Origin: Dictyostelium discoideum
Taxonomy: Eukaryota
Reading direction: 5' to 3'
DNA length: 64,000 nucleotides
Assembly: GCA_000004695.1 (NCBI GenBank)
Contig: CM000152.2
Span: 5,760,001 to 5,824,000 of the forward strand
Positions 15,152 to 31,965 of this stretch are shown here, one piece after another (within the stretch, counting starts at the first letter, position 1; each line of letters begins with the position of its first letter). Under the pieces are notes generated by a model. It made no database searches. It saw nothing but the letters and a program-made list of their open reading frames with translations, and was not told the DNA's origin. Both the position numbers and the translations under genes were made by a program.

Positions 15152-17009
15152 TTAATTTGCTAATTTAAAAGTAGTTTCTTCACAACCATATGCTTTTGGT
15201 GATAATTGAATTAAAGTATGTAATGGAATATTAATGAAGGGGCATTCTTCTTTAACTCTACCTTTGAGATAAGAATAGAGACAACGAAGAGTGGCTTGAT
15301 GAGAAACGATTAGGACTGGTGATTTAGTTCTTTCCAATTCTAATAATAGAGGTTCAAGACGTTGAATTACATCTTCATAACTTTCACCTCTTGGATAACG
15401 ATATTGAAGTTTATCAGAATCACGAGCAGCCCTTTCATCTGGCATTTTCTCTTGAATTTCTTCATAGGTCATACCATCGCAAACACCAGCATCAATTTCA
15501 TCCAATGCTCTCATTACAACCTTTGGTTGAGAGATATATTGAGCTGTACGAATTGCACGTTTCAAACTTGAGGTCCATACCACAACTTCACCATCGTAGC
15601 CGTCAGCACGGACTTTTGAACACCATTCACTAATCCAAACGGCCAATTGGTGGGCGTAGTTATCGCCACGTTCAGTGAGGTCGCTGTCGCCACCAATACG
15701 ATTTTGGGCGTTGAACTCGCTCTCGCCCTGACGGGTCAACCAGATGGGACGGGGGTGGAGGTTGGAGGTTCATGAGGAAGAACACCACCCTGCTTGGTAT
15801 GTACCCGGTGATGTTATTCACCTCGATCTTCTTGCCAACATCGAATAGCTTTATGTAGCGAGTTTTCTCGCCCTCCACAGTCTCATACACTTTTAGATAA
15901 TGATTGATTCTATCACGAAAGTCTTGCACGGCCTTGGAGGGATCCACACCCTGGTAATCGGGTGACAATAGTTTGGTCTCCTTAATGTTATGTTCGATCA
16001 CTGATGCATCATTACAAATTGATTCTACATAAACCACAGTCATCTTTTCACGAGTGCATCTTTTCTCTACTAATTGTCTTCTCTCGTTGGTGGAGTTGGT
16101 CGCATCGTAAATACCAACCCTACCACCGTTATGCAACCATGATATCATGTCGTCCAATGCCGCAACTGCCATATGCAATCTCGCCTTTATACCCTCTGGA
16201 TTATGTGGATCAAAGAAGTCATGTGGTTGTCCTGCACCAATTCTTAATCTTCTATATTCTCCAACATTAAACACCTTGGCTGGTACTAACATCCAATTTA
16301 ACATTCTACATATCTTTCTTGCAACATATGTTTTACCTCTTGCTGGTAATCCAACCATTACTAAAACTATCTTTTCTTTATCTAATCCTGTATAACCTTG
16401 TGATCTTTTTTTTGTATCTTCATCTTTTTAAAAATATAAAAAAAAAAAAAAAAATTAATTAATAATCTTTTTTTTTTTTTTTTTTTTTTTTTTCTTTTTT
16501 TTCTCTCTCTCTCTCTCTCTCTCCTACAACTTACTATACTCATGTCTAATTAATAATTCTTGATGTTCTTTTATATCATTAACATCAATAACTTGTTGTT
16601 CTTTATTTGTACCTTTATCAATTATAAGGAATTGAATATCAACATCTTTTGGAAATTCTGGAAACTTTTGTAAAAATAAAAATTTTAAATCTTCAACAGA
16701 AATACCTTTAAAATATGCTTTTTTAACTCTATCTTTAACTCTAAAAAATATTTCTCTACTATTTGGTATTGACGATGATGATGTTGTTGTTGTTGATGGT
16801 GTTGGTGAATTTACATTATAATTATTATTGTCATTATTATTATTTATATTAAAATTATTACCATATCTATTTGAAGAAGGTGATGATGACCCTGCTATAT
16901 TACTCCCAGGTGGTGATGAAGATGGTGATGATTTCGGTATTGAATAATTTGATTCATCATGGTCATTATGATTATTATCTACTGTTATTTGCGTTGTAAA
17001 TATATTATT
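15152..17009 (-). CDS. 6-phosphofructo-2-kinase/fructose-2,6-bisphosphatase (PFKFB). The main exon 15152..16423 carries an apparent +1 frameshift near 15751..15755. The upstream exon 16535..17009 is PB1-like, Ser/Asn-rich and has no start codon
   Basis: The kinase domain (…KIVLVMVGLPARGKTYVARKICRMLNWM…) and the histidine-phosphatase domain (…LTRQGESEFNAQNRIGGDSDLTERG…VVVWTSSLKRAIRTAQ…RYPRGESYEDV…) are both present. Two overlapping ORF-track entries (15672..16358, 15152..15739) join into the expected …FFLMNLQPPPRPIWLTRQGESEFN only if one C is removed from the C5/G5 run. The upstream exon ends …LIRHEY + a | GTAAGT at 16534. The intron (containing (CT)11) ends AAAAAG at 16424, and the splice is in frame into N-EDTKKRSQGYTGLDKEKIVLVMVG. 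The upstream exon is open from the stop at 17010 to 16535 and contains no in-frame ATG. Confidence 0.6.
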
Positions 17010-17522
17010 TTATGATATTGATTTATGCATTTTATAATTTTTTTTTGTATAGCTGTTTTTTTTTTTATATTTTATATTTTTAATTTTATTTTTATTTTTA
17101 TTTTAATTATTTTTAGTACTATTTTACATTAAGGGAAAAAAAAAGTTTTTTTTTTTTTTTAAATTTGGTTAATTTTTTTAAAAATCAAAATTTAAATTTA
17201 TTTAAATTTCTTTTTTTTTTTTTTACTTTATTTCACAACAAAACTTTTATTAGAAAAAAAAAAAAAAAAAAAATTGAAATTTCAAAAATTTTATAAAAAA
17301 AAAAAAATAACCCCTAGAATAAAAAAAAAAAATAAAAAATAAATAAAAAATAAAAAAAAAAAAAAATATCCTGCATCACACCACACTAACAAAACATTTT
17401 TTTTTTTAATTTTTTGTTAATTTTCATTTTTTTTAATTTTTTTTTTTTAATTTTTTTTTTTATTTTATTTTTTTTTCATTTTTCCCCCATCCATTTGATT
17501 TGAAGATTGGATATAATAGGAA

Positions 17523-21208: not shown

Positions 21209-21538
21209 TAAAAATGATAAATAAATGTAAAGTTCATTGTTACTTTACGAATTTCAGTTTTATGAAAACTGAAAATAAAAAAAAATAAAAAATATAAACA
21301 ATTTTTCGTTTTTCACTTCCAATCTAAATAAAACATTCTTATTATCTATTTTTGGATTACTAACATATTTAATTATATAATTACTTTATTATTATTGTAC
21401 TTTACAGTTGTAATTTTTTTATATAAGATGACTTGAGATGAGTAACTGGAGTGTCTAATTTTAGGAATTTTAAAAAAAAAAATCAAATAATTTTTGTTCG
21501 ATTGATGTTGAATTATCATAAATTGATTTAATTCAACA

Positions 21539-21549
21539 GGAATCGAACC
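21539..21549 (-). promoter_or_regulatory. External B-box (exB, GGTTCGATTCC) about 31 to 41 nt downstream of the tRNA-Ser 3' end
   Basis: The minus strand reads …ACAGGTTCGATTCCTGT…. This is a second copy of the pol III B-box consensus outside the tRNA body. D. discoideum tRNA genes are known to carry an ex-B box 20 to 40 bp downstream. Confidence 0.55.
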
Positions 21550-21579
21550 TGTGATACAGGTTTTAATGCACTAAAAATT

Positions 21580-21660
21580 CGACACCTGCAGGGTTCGAAC
21601 CTGCGCCTCCGAAGAGAACGCCTTAGCAGGGCGCCGCATTAACCACTTTGCTAAGGTGTC
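21580..21660 (-). tRNA. tRNA-Ser (anticodon GCU), class II with long variable arm, 81 nt
   Basis: Minus-strand read: GACACCT-TA-GCA-AAGTGGTTAA-TGC-G-GCGCC-CTGCTAA-GGCGT-TCTCTTCGGAGGC-GCAGG-TTCGAAC-CCTGC-AGGTGTC-G. The acceptor stem pairs 7/7. The anticodon loop CU-GCU-AA gives anticodon GCU. The T-loop is TTCGAAC and the variable arm is CUC/GAG. Confidence 0.85.
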
Positions 21661-21699
21661 ATTGAAAACCAAATGGGTTATACACTTTGCTAAGGAGTT

Positions 21700-21983
21700 A
21701 TCGAAACAAAACAACAACAATCTCTTTTTTTGACTATCTCAAGGAGAAGCAAATAATAATTGCGTTATCCAATTCAAAAAAAAAAAATCTCTTTTTTTGA
21801 TTATTTCATTTTTCATATAAAAAGACTTAAAAAACAAATAAATAAATAAATAAACTATTTTAAAAAGCCATATTTTTACTTTATTGTAATTTATTATTTG
21901 TTTTGTTTTGAAAAAAGAAAAAGATAATCAAAAACAACAACAACAATCTCTTTTTTGATTGTTTCATTTTTCATATAAAAAGA

Positions 21984-25149: not shown

Positions 25150-25225
<76 letters not shown>
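25150..25225. repeat. Homopolymer (T) of about 76 in the promoter-proximal region of the first Grl-like gene
   Basis: An uninterrupted T run on the + strand. Other long runs are T about 55 at 8340..8394 and A about 66 at 62181..62246. Confidence 0.9.
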
Positions 25226-25478
25226 CATAACAAACATTTTTTTTAAATAAAAAAGAGATAAATTAATACTAATAAAAATTAAAAATAATAATAATAAATA
25301 AAAAAAATAATAAAAAATAAAAAAATAACAAAAACAAAAATAATAAAAATAGACAAATTAAAATAAAAAACCCTAAACAAAAAAAAAATAAAAAAATAAA
25401 ATTTTGAACATACACAAAATTCGTAAAGGGGGTGATTTTTTTTAATCAAAAAAAAAAAAATTAAAAAAATAAAATAAA

Positions 25479-27871
25479 ATGAAAAATATTTTAAAAATTT
25501 TAATTTTAATTTTAATATGTATAAATAAAATAAATTGTCTTGATGGAGATGGAAAACAATTTAGAATGATAATGTTATTATCAGCCAATGTAAATGATAT
25601 GGGATTTAATAATATGATGAATCAAGGTAGAATTGGAGTTTCAAAGAATTTACAAATTGAAGATTCAAGATTAATAGTAGTAGATGGAGAGAATGATACC
25701 AAAGCCTTAGTTGAACCAATCCTACAAAATGAAGATATCGATTTCGTTATATGTTCTAGCCAAGGTCATACTGTCGCATGTAAATATTTTGCCGATAAAT
25801 ATTTAAAACATCCAACTGTGAAAACCCAATTCTTAATCAGAGGAAGTGGTTCCTCAACAGCCAATCTAATCCAATTCAACTATAACTTTGCCTCATGCAA
25901 CTACATGAGTGGTTACTTTGCCGGTTTGCATACAAAAACCAATAAAATCGGCTTCCTTTCACCGGGCGCCCCAAAGGTGAATGATGCTTGGGTGTATGCA
26001 TTCTGGCTTGGAGCAAAACAAGTTAATCCAAAAATCCAATTTTTCTACTACAACGTAGGTGCATTCTTAAATCCAGACGCTTCCGAAAGAGCCACCAACG
26101 ATCTATTGGAGAGAGGTTGTGATGTCATTGGTAATACATTGGATGATTTCTCAAGTGGTATCACAATTATGTCCAAAGGGTATCGTACGATTGGTACCAA
26201 TGGTTTCCCACAAAAACTGATCTATGGTGAAAAGATTCTATACAGTTATGCCTACAATTGGACTAAACTATTCTTACCAATTGCTATGAGTGTCAAAGCT
26301 GGTATTACCAATAATACCAATGGCTATGGTGATTTCAATCTTGATGAAAGTAAAAACTTTTTCAATATAGAATATAGTTATGGTGTTAGCACTGATACAA
26401 TCAATAGAATGAATCAACAAATTACCTTTTTAAAATCAAATTCAAGATTTACTCATCCATATTATTGTAATGAATATTTGCCAGAATATACTAAAAAAAA
26501 TAATTTAAATTTATCAACTTCACCAACTGTTAATAATTTAATTTGTATTGATCATTCAACATTTTTAAAAATTAATCCACCATTTCCTGGTATGACTTAT
26601 TTAGGTATTTATAATATATCATTAGTTGAAGTAAATATTATATTTAAAAAAAAAAAAAAAAAAAAAAATTATTTATTTTATTTATATATTAATTTTAAAA
26701 TTTTATTATTTTTTTTAAATTAAAATAGGTTGAATTTTCACAATCAATCCAAAATGGTTTTTCAATTACAACTGGTATTTTAATTGGAATTACAATTTTA
26801 ATGATGATTGGTATTATTAAATATAGTAAAACTCCATCAATGAGATCAGCAAGTCCAATTTTCTTAAATTTTATATTAGCCGGTGGTATAATTGTTTATA
26901 TTGGTATAATTGTTTGGGTTGGTCCAATGAGTACTCATTCATGTAATGCTAGACTTTGGTTAGTTACACTTGGTTTTTCAACATTAATTGGTAGTTTGGT
27001 TGTAAAGAATTTTAGAATTTGGTTAATTTTTGATAATCCAGAATTGAAATCAATTAAAATTACAAATTATCAATTATTCCCATGGGTTGGTGCTTGTTTA
27101 GTAATTAATATCATATTAATGGCAATACTAACAAGTGTTGGTGATTTAAAACAAATCGATGCAATGAATATTGATTCGTTAGGTAAATATGAGTATATGA
27201 AAGTTTGTAAAATGAATAGTTCTGGTGCATCAACATTGTATACGATTTTAGCATATTTCGCAGCACTACTATTGGTTGGTGTATTTGTATCATGGAAGAT
27301 TAGAATCGTAGATATTCTAGAGTTTAATGAATCTGGTGCAATTGCAAATACATTATATGCTATTAGCTTTTGTTTATTCGTAATTGTACCATTGATGATA
27401 TCACCACAAGATATGCAATCAGAGACTATTATACTTTGTACAACTGGTTTATTCATTACCACTGCGGCTTTATTGATTATTTTCATTCCAAAATTCTGGA
27501 GAGTATTTAGAAAAGGTGCTAATGATAGTGAAATTAATTTTAATAAAAAGAAATCATCATCAGTTGCAACTGCACGTGCTGAAAGTGGTAGTAAAGGTTC
27601 AAATGGAAATGCTAGTAGTGGTAATAGAACAAATCGTAGAGGAAATGTTGTATCTGGTGATTTTACTGATGATTCTGAATCATCTGTAGGTGATGAAAAT
27701 CAAAAAGAAAAAGAAAAAATAAAAGATGATGTTGCTAATGTTACCTCTGGTGCAGTTTTGGCTGAATTTACTGATGAAGCTTCAGATACAGATAATAATG
27801 AATTTAATGATATTGAATTATCAGAACAACCACCAAGTATTATTGTCAATGATTCAGAAAATAATAATTAA
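25479..27871 (+). CDS. Class-C (family 3) GPCR-like protein. Periplasmic-binding/BMP-like extracellular domain plus 7TM, Grl (metabotropic glutamate/GABA-B receptor-like) family. 2 exons: 25479..26630, 26729..27871 (about 764 aa)
   Basis: Signal peptide, then GFNNMMNQGRIGV…VICSSQGH… (BMP/PnrA-like binding domain). Exon 1 ends …SLVE | GTAAAT and the 98-nt intron ends AAATAG. Exon 2 (VEFSQSIQNGFSITTG…) holds seven hydrophobic helices including NARLWLVTLGFSTLIGSLVVKNFRIWLIF (class-C TM3-like), followed by an acidic Ser-rich tail. Confidence 0.6.
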
Positions 27872-28595: not shown

Positions 28596-29444
28596 AGTAA
28601 AGTGATTAGTAACATAAATTTTAAAATATTTTTAAAAATTGAATTTTTAAAAAAAAAAAAATTTTTTAAAATTTATTAAAATTGAATAGAAAAAAAAAAA
28701 AAAACAGAAAAAAAAAAAAAAAAAAAAAAACAAAAAAAGATATATAAAAATCCAATGACACTGTTATTATTTATTTATTTTCATATTTCCAAATTATTTT
28801 GATAAAATCCCCACACCCCAACACATCGTCGTTCACACCATAACTTTTTCTTTTTAGGGTTATCTAGATAATTTTTTTTTTTAGAAAAAAAAAAAAAATG
28901 GTATTATATATAAAATGATGTTGATATTTTTAAAAAAAGGCTGATAAATAACAACACCATTATTTTTCCTTTATTTATTTTAATTTTTTTTTTTTTTTAT
29001 TAAAAAAAAACTAATTTTGTAACTAAACAAAAAAAAAATTTTAAAAATAAAAAAAAAAAGTTTAAAAAAAAAAAATTTTAGTCTTTTTATTTTTAAAAAA
29101 AAAAACTATTTTTGTAAAACCTATAGGACAAAAAAAAACATCTAAATTTTATTTATTTATTATTTTTTTGCACATCTAATTTTTCTTTATAGTAAAAATA
29201 AAATATTTATAAATTTTTTAAAAAAAAAAAAAAATAAAATAAAAAAAAAAAAAAAAAAATTACCAACTGACAAACTAAAAAAGAAAAAAAAAAATAAAAA
29301 TAAAAAAAAAAATCTAATAATTAAAAAAAAAAAAAAAAAAAAAAATAATAATAACAATAATAATAAAAAAAAAAAAATAGAATAATAACAAAGATTTTAA
29401 ATTTATAAATAAAATAAAAATTAGATTTCCAATTTTTTTTTTTG

Positions 29445-31965
<2,521 letters not shown>

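Follow-up and report, generated by a model that had tools for sequence, protein, structure and literature searches.

A tract of synonymous AT-to-GC changes specific to Dictyostelium discoideum within the PFKFB gene DDB_G0282759

The present analysis concerns a GC-rich island located within the PFKFB gene DDB_G0282759 of Dictyostelium discoideum AX4, which is encoded on the minus strand of a 64,000-nucleotide stretch of contig CM000152.2 (assembly GCA_000004695.1, forward-strand positions 5,760,001 to 5,824,000; the whole of this stretch is referred to as the window, and coordinates are given with respect to its first nucleotide). The island proper (15596..16176, minus strand, codons 248-441 of the repaired coding sequence), whose limits were derived from polarised substitutions, 500-bp bins and the GC profile, is a D. 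discoideum-specific tract of synonymous AT-to-GC changes. With high confidence, it is native D. discoideum sequence in which a lineage-specific burst of AT-to-GC changes was made in place. As to the cause of this burst, GC-biased gene conversion (gBGC) at a candidate local hotspot of recombination or repair, for which we infer a bias in fixation, is given about an even chance.

The mean GC content of the window is 0.208, and its 200-bp intervals have a median GC of 0.205, with 0.425 as the 99th percentile. The highest 200-bp value of the entire 64 kb (0.56) is reached by the interval starting at position 15591 (0.555 for 15600-15799), the next peak being 0.445, and the elevation seen in 200-bp intervals extends over approximately 15400-16300. 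An initial annotation of this DNA had placed an island of 50-55% GC at 15450-16150; this is the same feature, and such values apply to a core of approximately 15500-15900, whereas the full 700 bp amount to about 45% (0.455) and the substitutions place the island about 100 bp away from those limits. Its further compositional statements agree with exact counts: the segment 15660..15720, for which about 55% GC had been given, measures 0.541, the flanks described as AT-biased at about 30-37% GC measure 0.304 (16250-16420) and 0.321 (15152-15400), and the GC-rich codon string that it quoted is the minus-strand reading of 15727-15665. The excess GC is located at third codon positions (GC3), with a value of 0.54 for codons 240-440 versus 0.13 for the remaining conserved coding sequence, and the mosaic composition reported inside a single exon is thus real. 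The other long open reading frames of the window have a mean GC3 of 0.07-0.25 (average 0.13) and do not exceed 0.57 in any interval of 30 codons. The peak of the island (15704..15794, minus strand, codons 376-405) has a GC3 of 0.87 over 30 codons, includes the codons of the RHG motif (396-398) and spans the boundary between the kinase and phosphatase domains, which the Pfam limits place at approximately codons 389-392. The genome-wide GC3 of D. discoideum is about 14% and its mutational equilibrium GC content 12.2% (PMC8321536), and the statement that the mutational drift of this genome does not produce such an island is therefore likewise correct.

The identity of DDB_G0282759 was established by a protein search. 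Its product carries an N-terminal 6PF2K kinase domain (PF01591, 4.9e-78) and a C-terminal histidine phosphatase domain (PF00300, 3.9e-35) according to Pfam, contains the Walker A motif GLPARGKT and aligns end to end with human PFKFB3 (2.9e-114), and hence possesses the two domains by which a PFKFB is recognised.

Orthologues and the corresponding genomic DNA were obtained from 11 other assemblies, one of them from a second D. discoideum strain and ten from further species of dictyostelids, and synteny of the PFKFB locus is conserved in all orthologue assemblies. Within codons 240-440, the GC3 of 0.54 found in D. discoideum compares with 0.33 in D. cf. discoideum, 0.30 in D. citrinum, 0.25 in D. 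dimigraforme, 0.29 in D. firmibasis, 0.27 in D. purpureum and 0.14 in P. violaceum, the remaining coding sequence having a GC3 of 0.10-0.18 in D. discoideum, its four close siblings, D. purpureum and P. violaceum. The peak value is 0.87 in D. discoideum, 0.50 in D. cf. discoideum and 0.17-0.43 in the others. A GC-rich core that is old and shared by dictyostelid PFKFBs could account for the weak hump common to all other group-4 species (0.25-0.33 against 0.10-0.18), but it leaves the main peak (0.54 overall, 0.87 locally) to D. discoideum only; moreover, P. violaceum has no hump (0.14 vs 0.15), and where GC3 is high, in Acytostelium and Heterostelium, it is so over the whole gene and in line with their flanks. 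The same GC-rich core was looked for in the orthologues of other AT-rich dictyostelids, where its presence would, according to the initial annotation, have refuted the proposal made there, and was not found; conserved ancient composition is refuted for the main peak and is highly improbable overall.

A separate observation is that in every dictyostelid (six loci) GC3 reaches its minimum for the gene at codons ~283-330 (approximately 15930-16075), even in the GC-rich Acytostelium, with values of 0.00-0.17 in Cavenderia and Heterostelium. This stretch was spared by the D. discoideum burst and surrounds the codon-321 intron of Cavenderia, Heterostelium and Acytostelium, which suggests a conserved constraint on silent sites.

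In order to assign a direction to the third-position changes of codons 240-440, these were polarised by means of D. citrinum and further outgroups. On the terminal D. discoideum branch, 44 changes from A or T to G or C (W>S) were found next to 3 S>W, 1 W>W and 2 S>S changes, all of them synonymous, while the sister branch carries 3 W>S and 6 S>W changes in the island. The fraction of ancestral AT-ending sites that were flipped is 33% in the island versus 3% outside (odds ratio 15, p=3.6e-17). Under strict parsimony, where all five other group-4 species are required to agree, the ratio of W>S to S>W changes is 24 to 1, and for the two preceding ancestral branches it is 7:0 and 4:2. A few of the changes predate the split, lying in the ancestor shared with D. 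citrinum and D. cf. discoideum, and most occurred after the split from D. cf. discoideum. The D. discoideum branch carries 81 W>S changes across the 18 kb of locus that could be aligned (5,875 reliable columns), and 43 of them fall within 1 kb.

The changes are symmetric with respect to strand (26 of 77 sites for T>C/G versus 18 of 56 for A>G/C) and include six transversions besides transitions. No dependence of the flips on the neighbouring base or on the amino acid was seen, position alone being of importance: none of the 13 sites in codons 280-299 was flipped, versus 8 of the 11 AT-ending sites in codons 380-399. Hypermutation of the deaminase or editing type was considered and rejected, since neither strand nor context bias is found and transversions are present. 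When codons are ranked by the usage of the window itself, 50 of 55 synonymous replacements lead to rarer codons, and GGT>GGC, GCA>GCG, AGA>AGG, GAA>GAG, CCA>CCC and AGT>AGC all proceed towards the rarest ones. Amino-acid changes of the island on the D. discoideum branch number zero. The burst is thus directional, clustered, for the most part later than the split from D. cf. discoideum and made in place, and is specific neither for particular codons nor for one strand.

A composition so atypical for the genome might be expected of a segment acquired from a GC-rich source, be it a xenolog, a transferred copy or an introgression from a GC-richer relative, and gene conversion with such a donor had been suggested at the outset. 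The protein encoded by the island is, however, 100% identical to that of D. cf. discoideum, 99.5% to those of D. citrinum, D. dimigraforme and D. firmibasis and 94% to that of D. purpureum; the values are 84-90% for more distant dictyostelids (84% for the GC-rich Acytostelium and Heterostelium), ~55% for the best bacterial homologue (Sorangium, 56%) and for other amoebozoan homologues, and 51% for the paralogue. These identities follow the species tree, as do those of both flanks when identity is computed per segment, with no phylogenetic discordance and no foreign best match. The codon families used within the island (AGY for Ser, CGT for Arg, CTY for Leu) match those of the siblings, to which the island is collinear and from which it differs almost solely in the third base, and its profile is graded and patchy, without block-like boundaries. 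Changes other than W>S amount to 6 per ~200 third positions, which is not above the rate outside, so that only W>S changes are raised; a donor no more distant than D. discoideum itself would be required. In principle, this could be a very close relative, so far unsampled, in which the same burst had already taken place; overall, a GC-rich donor is very unlikely, and the proposal of gene conversion is retained only in the form of GC-biased conversion between ordinary alleles, in which form it is the leading explanation.

The notion that the island is an assembly chimera or a contaminant of the AX4 reference gains some ground from the unusually error-prone or divergent state of this reference over 15.7-17.3 kb: relative to the second assembly it shows 32 mismatches in 20 kb, 18 of which lie inside 15728-17313. 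The island is, nevertheless, reproduced base for base in this second, chromosome-level assembly (GCA_054883475.1) and in Logan contigs from four sequencing runs, the sole island differences of these five sources being 3 sites peculiar to the AX4 reference, and D. cf. discoideum and D. citrinum have intermediate GC states at the syntenic locus. A chimeric origin, which the initial annotation had also listed, is therefore refuted. A scan of metagenomes with a degenerate pattern of the island for further haplotypes gave 0 matches, and a literature search for the gene identifier DDB_G0282759 and for the run and assembly accessions retrieved no match.

The AX4 reference carries three lesions in this gene. 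Codon 7 (17010..17012, minus strand) is a TAA stop, where the second assembly and the sibling species have TCA (Ser; the differing position is 17011). An extra A at 15763 (minus strand) converts CAC CTC CAC into CAA CCT CCA C and shifts the reading frame by +1 between the kinase and phosphatase domains; neither the second assembly nor any of the four contigs contains it. Codon 397 (15728..15730, minus strand) reads CAG (Gln) through a CAT>CAG change at 15728, and is elsewhere CAT or CAC, specifying the catalytic His of the RHG motif; this motif is present in all alleles with the exception of the AX4 reference (RQG). Two missense differences in exon 1 and one silent difference at 15834 complete the set of AX4 differences within the gene, and at every one of them AX4 stands alone, the remaining D. 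discoideum sources being in agreement with the siblings. A 7-bp tandem duplication (AACCTCC x2) was considered as the origin of the frameshift and discarded, as the orthologues read ...LHLHPRP... and a single inserted A is parsimonious. Most likely these lesions are errors in a stretch of low quality in the 2005 reference; otherwise they would constitute a null allele specific to AX4. The mismatch cluster at 15728-17313 reflects either low sequence quality or a hypervariable spot adjoining the island. It includes two dense groups of mismatches in the 5' flank of the gene, at 17040-17055 and at 17168-17195, the latter being mostly T<>A.

The reference gene model for this PFKFB, i.e. the RefSeq/dictyBase protein XP_640057, is consequently wrong. 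Comparison of this protein with the genomic reading reveals a false intron (15630..15888, minus strand, 259 nt, GC 0.53), which drops 86 conserved codons including those of the catalytic RHG motif and absorbs the +1 frameshift, whereas an alternative start sidesteps the stop; the model thereby comprises 488 aa, and the intact alleles encode the true protein of 588 aa. Decay of a pseudogene was rejected as the source of the composition, given that the lesions are confined to AX4, that the intact allele has the same island and that decay would run towards AT.

Selection at silent sites could in theory have produced the tract if rare GC-ending codons were favoured, either through slow translation assisting the folding of the kinase domain ahead of the emergence of the phosphatase domain or through an embedded DNA or RNA element. 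The GC3 maximum at codons 376-405 sits on the kinase/phosphatase boundary, nearly all replacements proceed towards rare codons and the protein is extremely constrained, all of which would suit such selection. Siblings with the identical protein nevertheless lack the island, and approximately 45 independent silent sites would each have needed a meaningful advantage within one short branch. Furthermore, there is no consistent codon target (for Ala alone, GCA>GCG, GCT>GCC and GCG>GCC are observed, so that any G or C serves), and the preferred codons of D. discoideum are not GC-rich (PMC8321536). As regards an embedded element, the predicted RNA fold of the island is not unusually structured (z=-1.05), an Rfam search of the window gave no match in the island and only a tRNA elsewhere, and no antisense open reading frame across the island was present among the long open reading frames that were checked. 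Strong selection on the segment, another of the possibilities raised initially, is therefore not favoured, and we regard it as distinctly unlikely.

A local mutational hotspot, in which the AT>GC rate had risen about 10-fold over 600 bp (e.g. through error-prone repair of breaks) and the changes had been fixed by drift, would agree with the approximately 5-fold acceleration of the synonymous rate, seen in a third-position distance to D. cf. discoideum of 0.29 in the island and 0.06 outside. It would also agree with the GC>AT changes, which are not demonstrably suppressed, and with the concentration of AX4 mismatches next to the island, which could indicate local hypermutability if these differences are real. 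On the other hand, the latter differences are of all classes, include the three disabling lesions that are contradicted by the contigs and resemble reference errors; the changes of the island have neither the strand asymmetry nor the sequence context of enzyme-type mutation; and the measured mutation spectrum of D. discoideum is strongly AT-biased everywhere, highly expressed genes included (PMC8321536). A hotspot of this kind appears rather unlikely.

The pattern described above is the classical signature of a tract-limited, GC-favouring process that operates at the level of DNA and at sites free of protein constraint, and for this reason gBGC is favoured. According to this explanation, a local GC-favouring bias in fixation would have acted on ~600 bp of exon 2, where heteroduplex DNA would repeatedly have formed at a hotspot of recombination or repair and have been resolved with a preference for G/C. 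An allele met during sexual reproduction could have served as the conversion partner, a cDNA copy being another possibility. The bias would drive AT>GC changes wherever they are compatible with purifying selection on the protein, whatever the quality of the resulting codon. In this view the hotspot would have originated in the stem of D. discoideum and have remained active in D. discoideum proper, whereas the D. cf. discoideum lineage, being without it, would now be relaxing towards AT. Among repeats and palindromes looked for around the island, only AT low-complexity matches were encountered.

Several points weigh against gBGC as the cause. The most serious of them is the outcome of five genome-wide tests, none of which revealed gBGC in D. 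discoideum (PMC8321536), and in view of these negative tests so strong a hotspot would be exceptional; some precedent is provided by a correlation between chromosome size and GC content in this species (PMC5635611) and by the GC enrichment of exons next to lost introns (PMC4683709). In addition, S>W changes in the island number 3 on the D. discoideum branch versus 5-6 on the sister branch, these being small numbers among 67 sites, and since GC>AT changes are not clearly suppressed, a bias in fixation is not distinguishable from an increase in the rate of AT>GC mutation. A gap at codons 280-299 renders the tract patchy, and it lies wholly within exon 2, the nearest intron, about 250 bp away, showing no burst.

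A recent loss of introns was examined as a trigger of the burst and rejected. Intron positions that other dictyostelids have at codons 321 and 372 fall inside the island, and group 4 is without both introns; P. violaceum and T. lacteum also lack introns at these codons and have no hump, from which it follows that the absence of the introns long predates the burst in D. discoideum.

As one third of the AT-ending codons within 600 bp were turned into GC-ending ones with no change in the protein, a strong GC-driving force operates, at least locally, in D. discoideum. This is of relevance because D. discoideum was chosen as a gBGC-free species for the clean study of selection on codon usage (PMC8321536). 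If the force is gBGC, the tract marks a candidate hotspot of recombination or repair in this organism, and if similar tracts exist elsewhere, masking will be needed in analyses of codon usage and of the ratio of nonsynonymous to synonymous substitution (dN/dS). A broader proposal, namely that D. discoideum contains at least one intense, narrow and lineage-specific GC-driving site that is distinct from ordinary meiotic gBGC, is held to be doubtful; candidates for such a site may be a recurrent programmed or fragile break with G/C-biased repair, or repeated cDNA-to-gene conversion. Dictyostelium, to our knowledge, lacks Spo11. A site of this kind, if real, would provide a first molecular entry point to the location and mechanism of heteroduplex repair in a sexual eukaryote without Spo11.

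The gene surrounding the island consists of two exons on the minus strand. Exon 1 (16535..17030, start codon ATG at 17030-17028, GC 0.24, GC3 ~0.07) encodes a low-complexity N-terminus and a conserved N-terminal module, and exon 2 (15152..16423, stop codon TAA at 15154-15152) encodes the 6PF2K and His_Phos_1 domains. The sole genuine intron between them (16424..16534, minus strand, 111 nt, GT..AG, phase 1, GC 0.16) occupies the same codon position in all 11 of the 11 orthologous genes with a mapped exon structure. This intron contains, at 16430-16525, a near-perfect A17/T26 palindrome followed by a (CT/GA)10 microsatellite, and differs by a 9-bp indel from that of the second assembly. The module of exon 1 (residues ~95-165, approximately 16535-16750) has the form IFFRVKDRVKKA.F.G...DLK.LF..KFPEFP... 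and precedes the kinase domain; it is common to all dictyostelid and several other amoebozoan PFKFBs, and precomputed Pfam assignments in relatives place it in PF03915. Full-length bifunctional PFKFBs that are ~55-58% identical to the Dictyostelium enzyme are encoded by the myxobacteria Sorangium, Minicystis, Byssovorax and Polyangium. These are as close to it as other amoebozoan homologues are, which suggests an old transfer of PFKFB between eukaryotes and myxobacteria.

Elsewhere in the window, a tRNA-Ser gene (anticodon GCT, 21579-21661, minus strand) explains a GC peak at 21471-21795. Two gene copies of the same orientation, located at 25207-27102 and 29274-31085 and ~76% identical to each other, encode products matching Bmp and 7tm_3, i.e. 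receptors resembling family-C G protein-coupled receptors; they appear to be a local tandem duplication, and both have moderate GC peaks (0.41-0.445).

When compared with known systems, the PFKFB island shares with xenologous segments a composition that is atypical for the host, and differs from them in having no tree discordance, foreign best match or block boundaries and in consisting of silent differences only. With respect to translational codon bias, the NNT>NNC class of two-fold codons was reportedly found by Sharp and Devine in 1989 to be favoured in highly expressed Dictyostelium genes. Many changes of the island are likewise NNT>NNC in two-fold codons; unlike translational bias, however, they are positional within one gene, mostly lead to rarer codons and are absent from siblings with the same protein.

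The textbook case of gBGC is provided by Fxy (Mid1) of the mouse, a gene that moved into the pseudoautosomal region and thereafter acquired a very high GC3 in its 3' half. In contrast to Fxy, which accumulated many amino-acid substitutions, the PFKFB locus has retained its synteny, without any relocation, and the island has acquired zero such substitutions. Hotspots of gBGC in mammals and birds resemble the island in that they generate a mosaic within a gene, with lineage-specific AT>GC changes clustered over less than 1 kb, affecting both strands, comprising transitions and transversions, being indifferent to codon quality and decaying where the hotspot is lacking; unlike the hosts of these hotspots, D. 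discoideum is reported to be without detectable gBGC (PMC8321536). Within the genus itself, exonic GC content is raised around lost introns in D. discoideum and D. purpureum, which has been attributed to cDNA-mediated biased gene conversion (PMC4683709). This rise is, like the island, local and confined to exons, and the island surrounds codons 321 and 372; it is, however, a modest statistical shift, whereas the island is a tract with a GC3 of 54-87% whose burst is far later. The introns lost at codons 321 and 372 could, in turn, be the source of the weak hump of the group-4 species.

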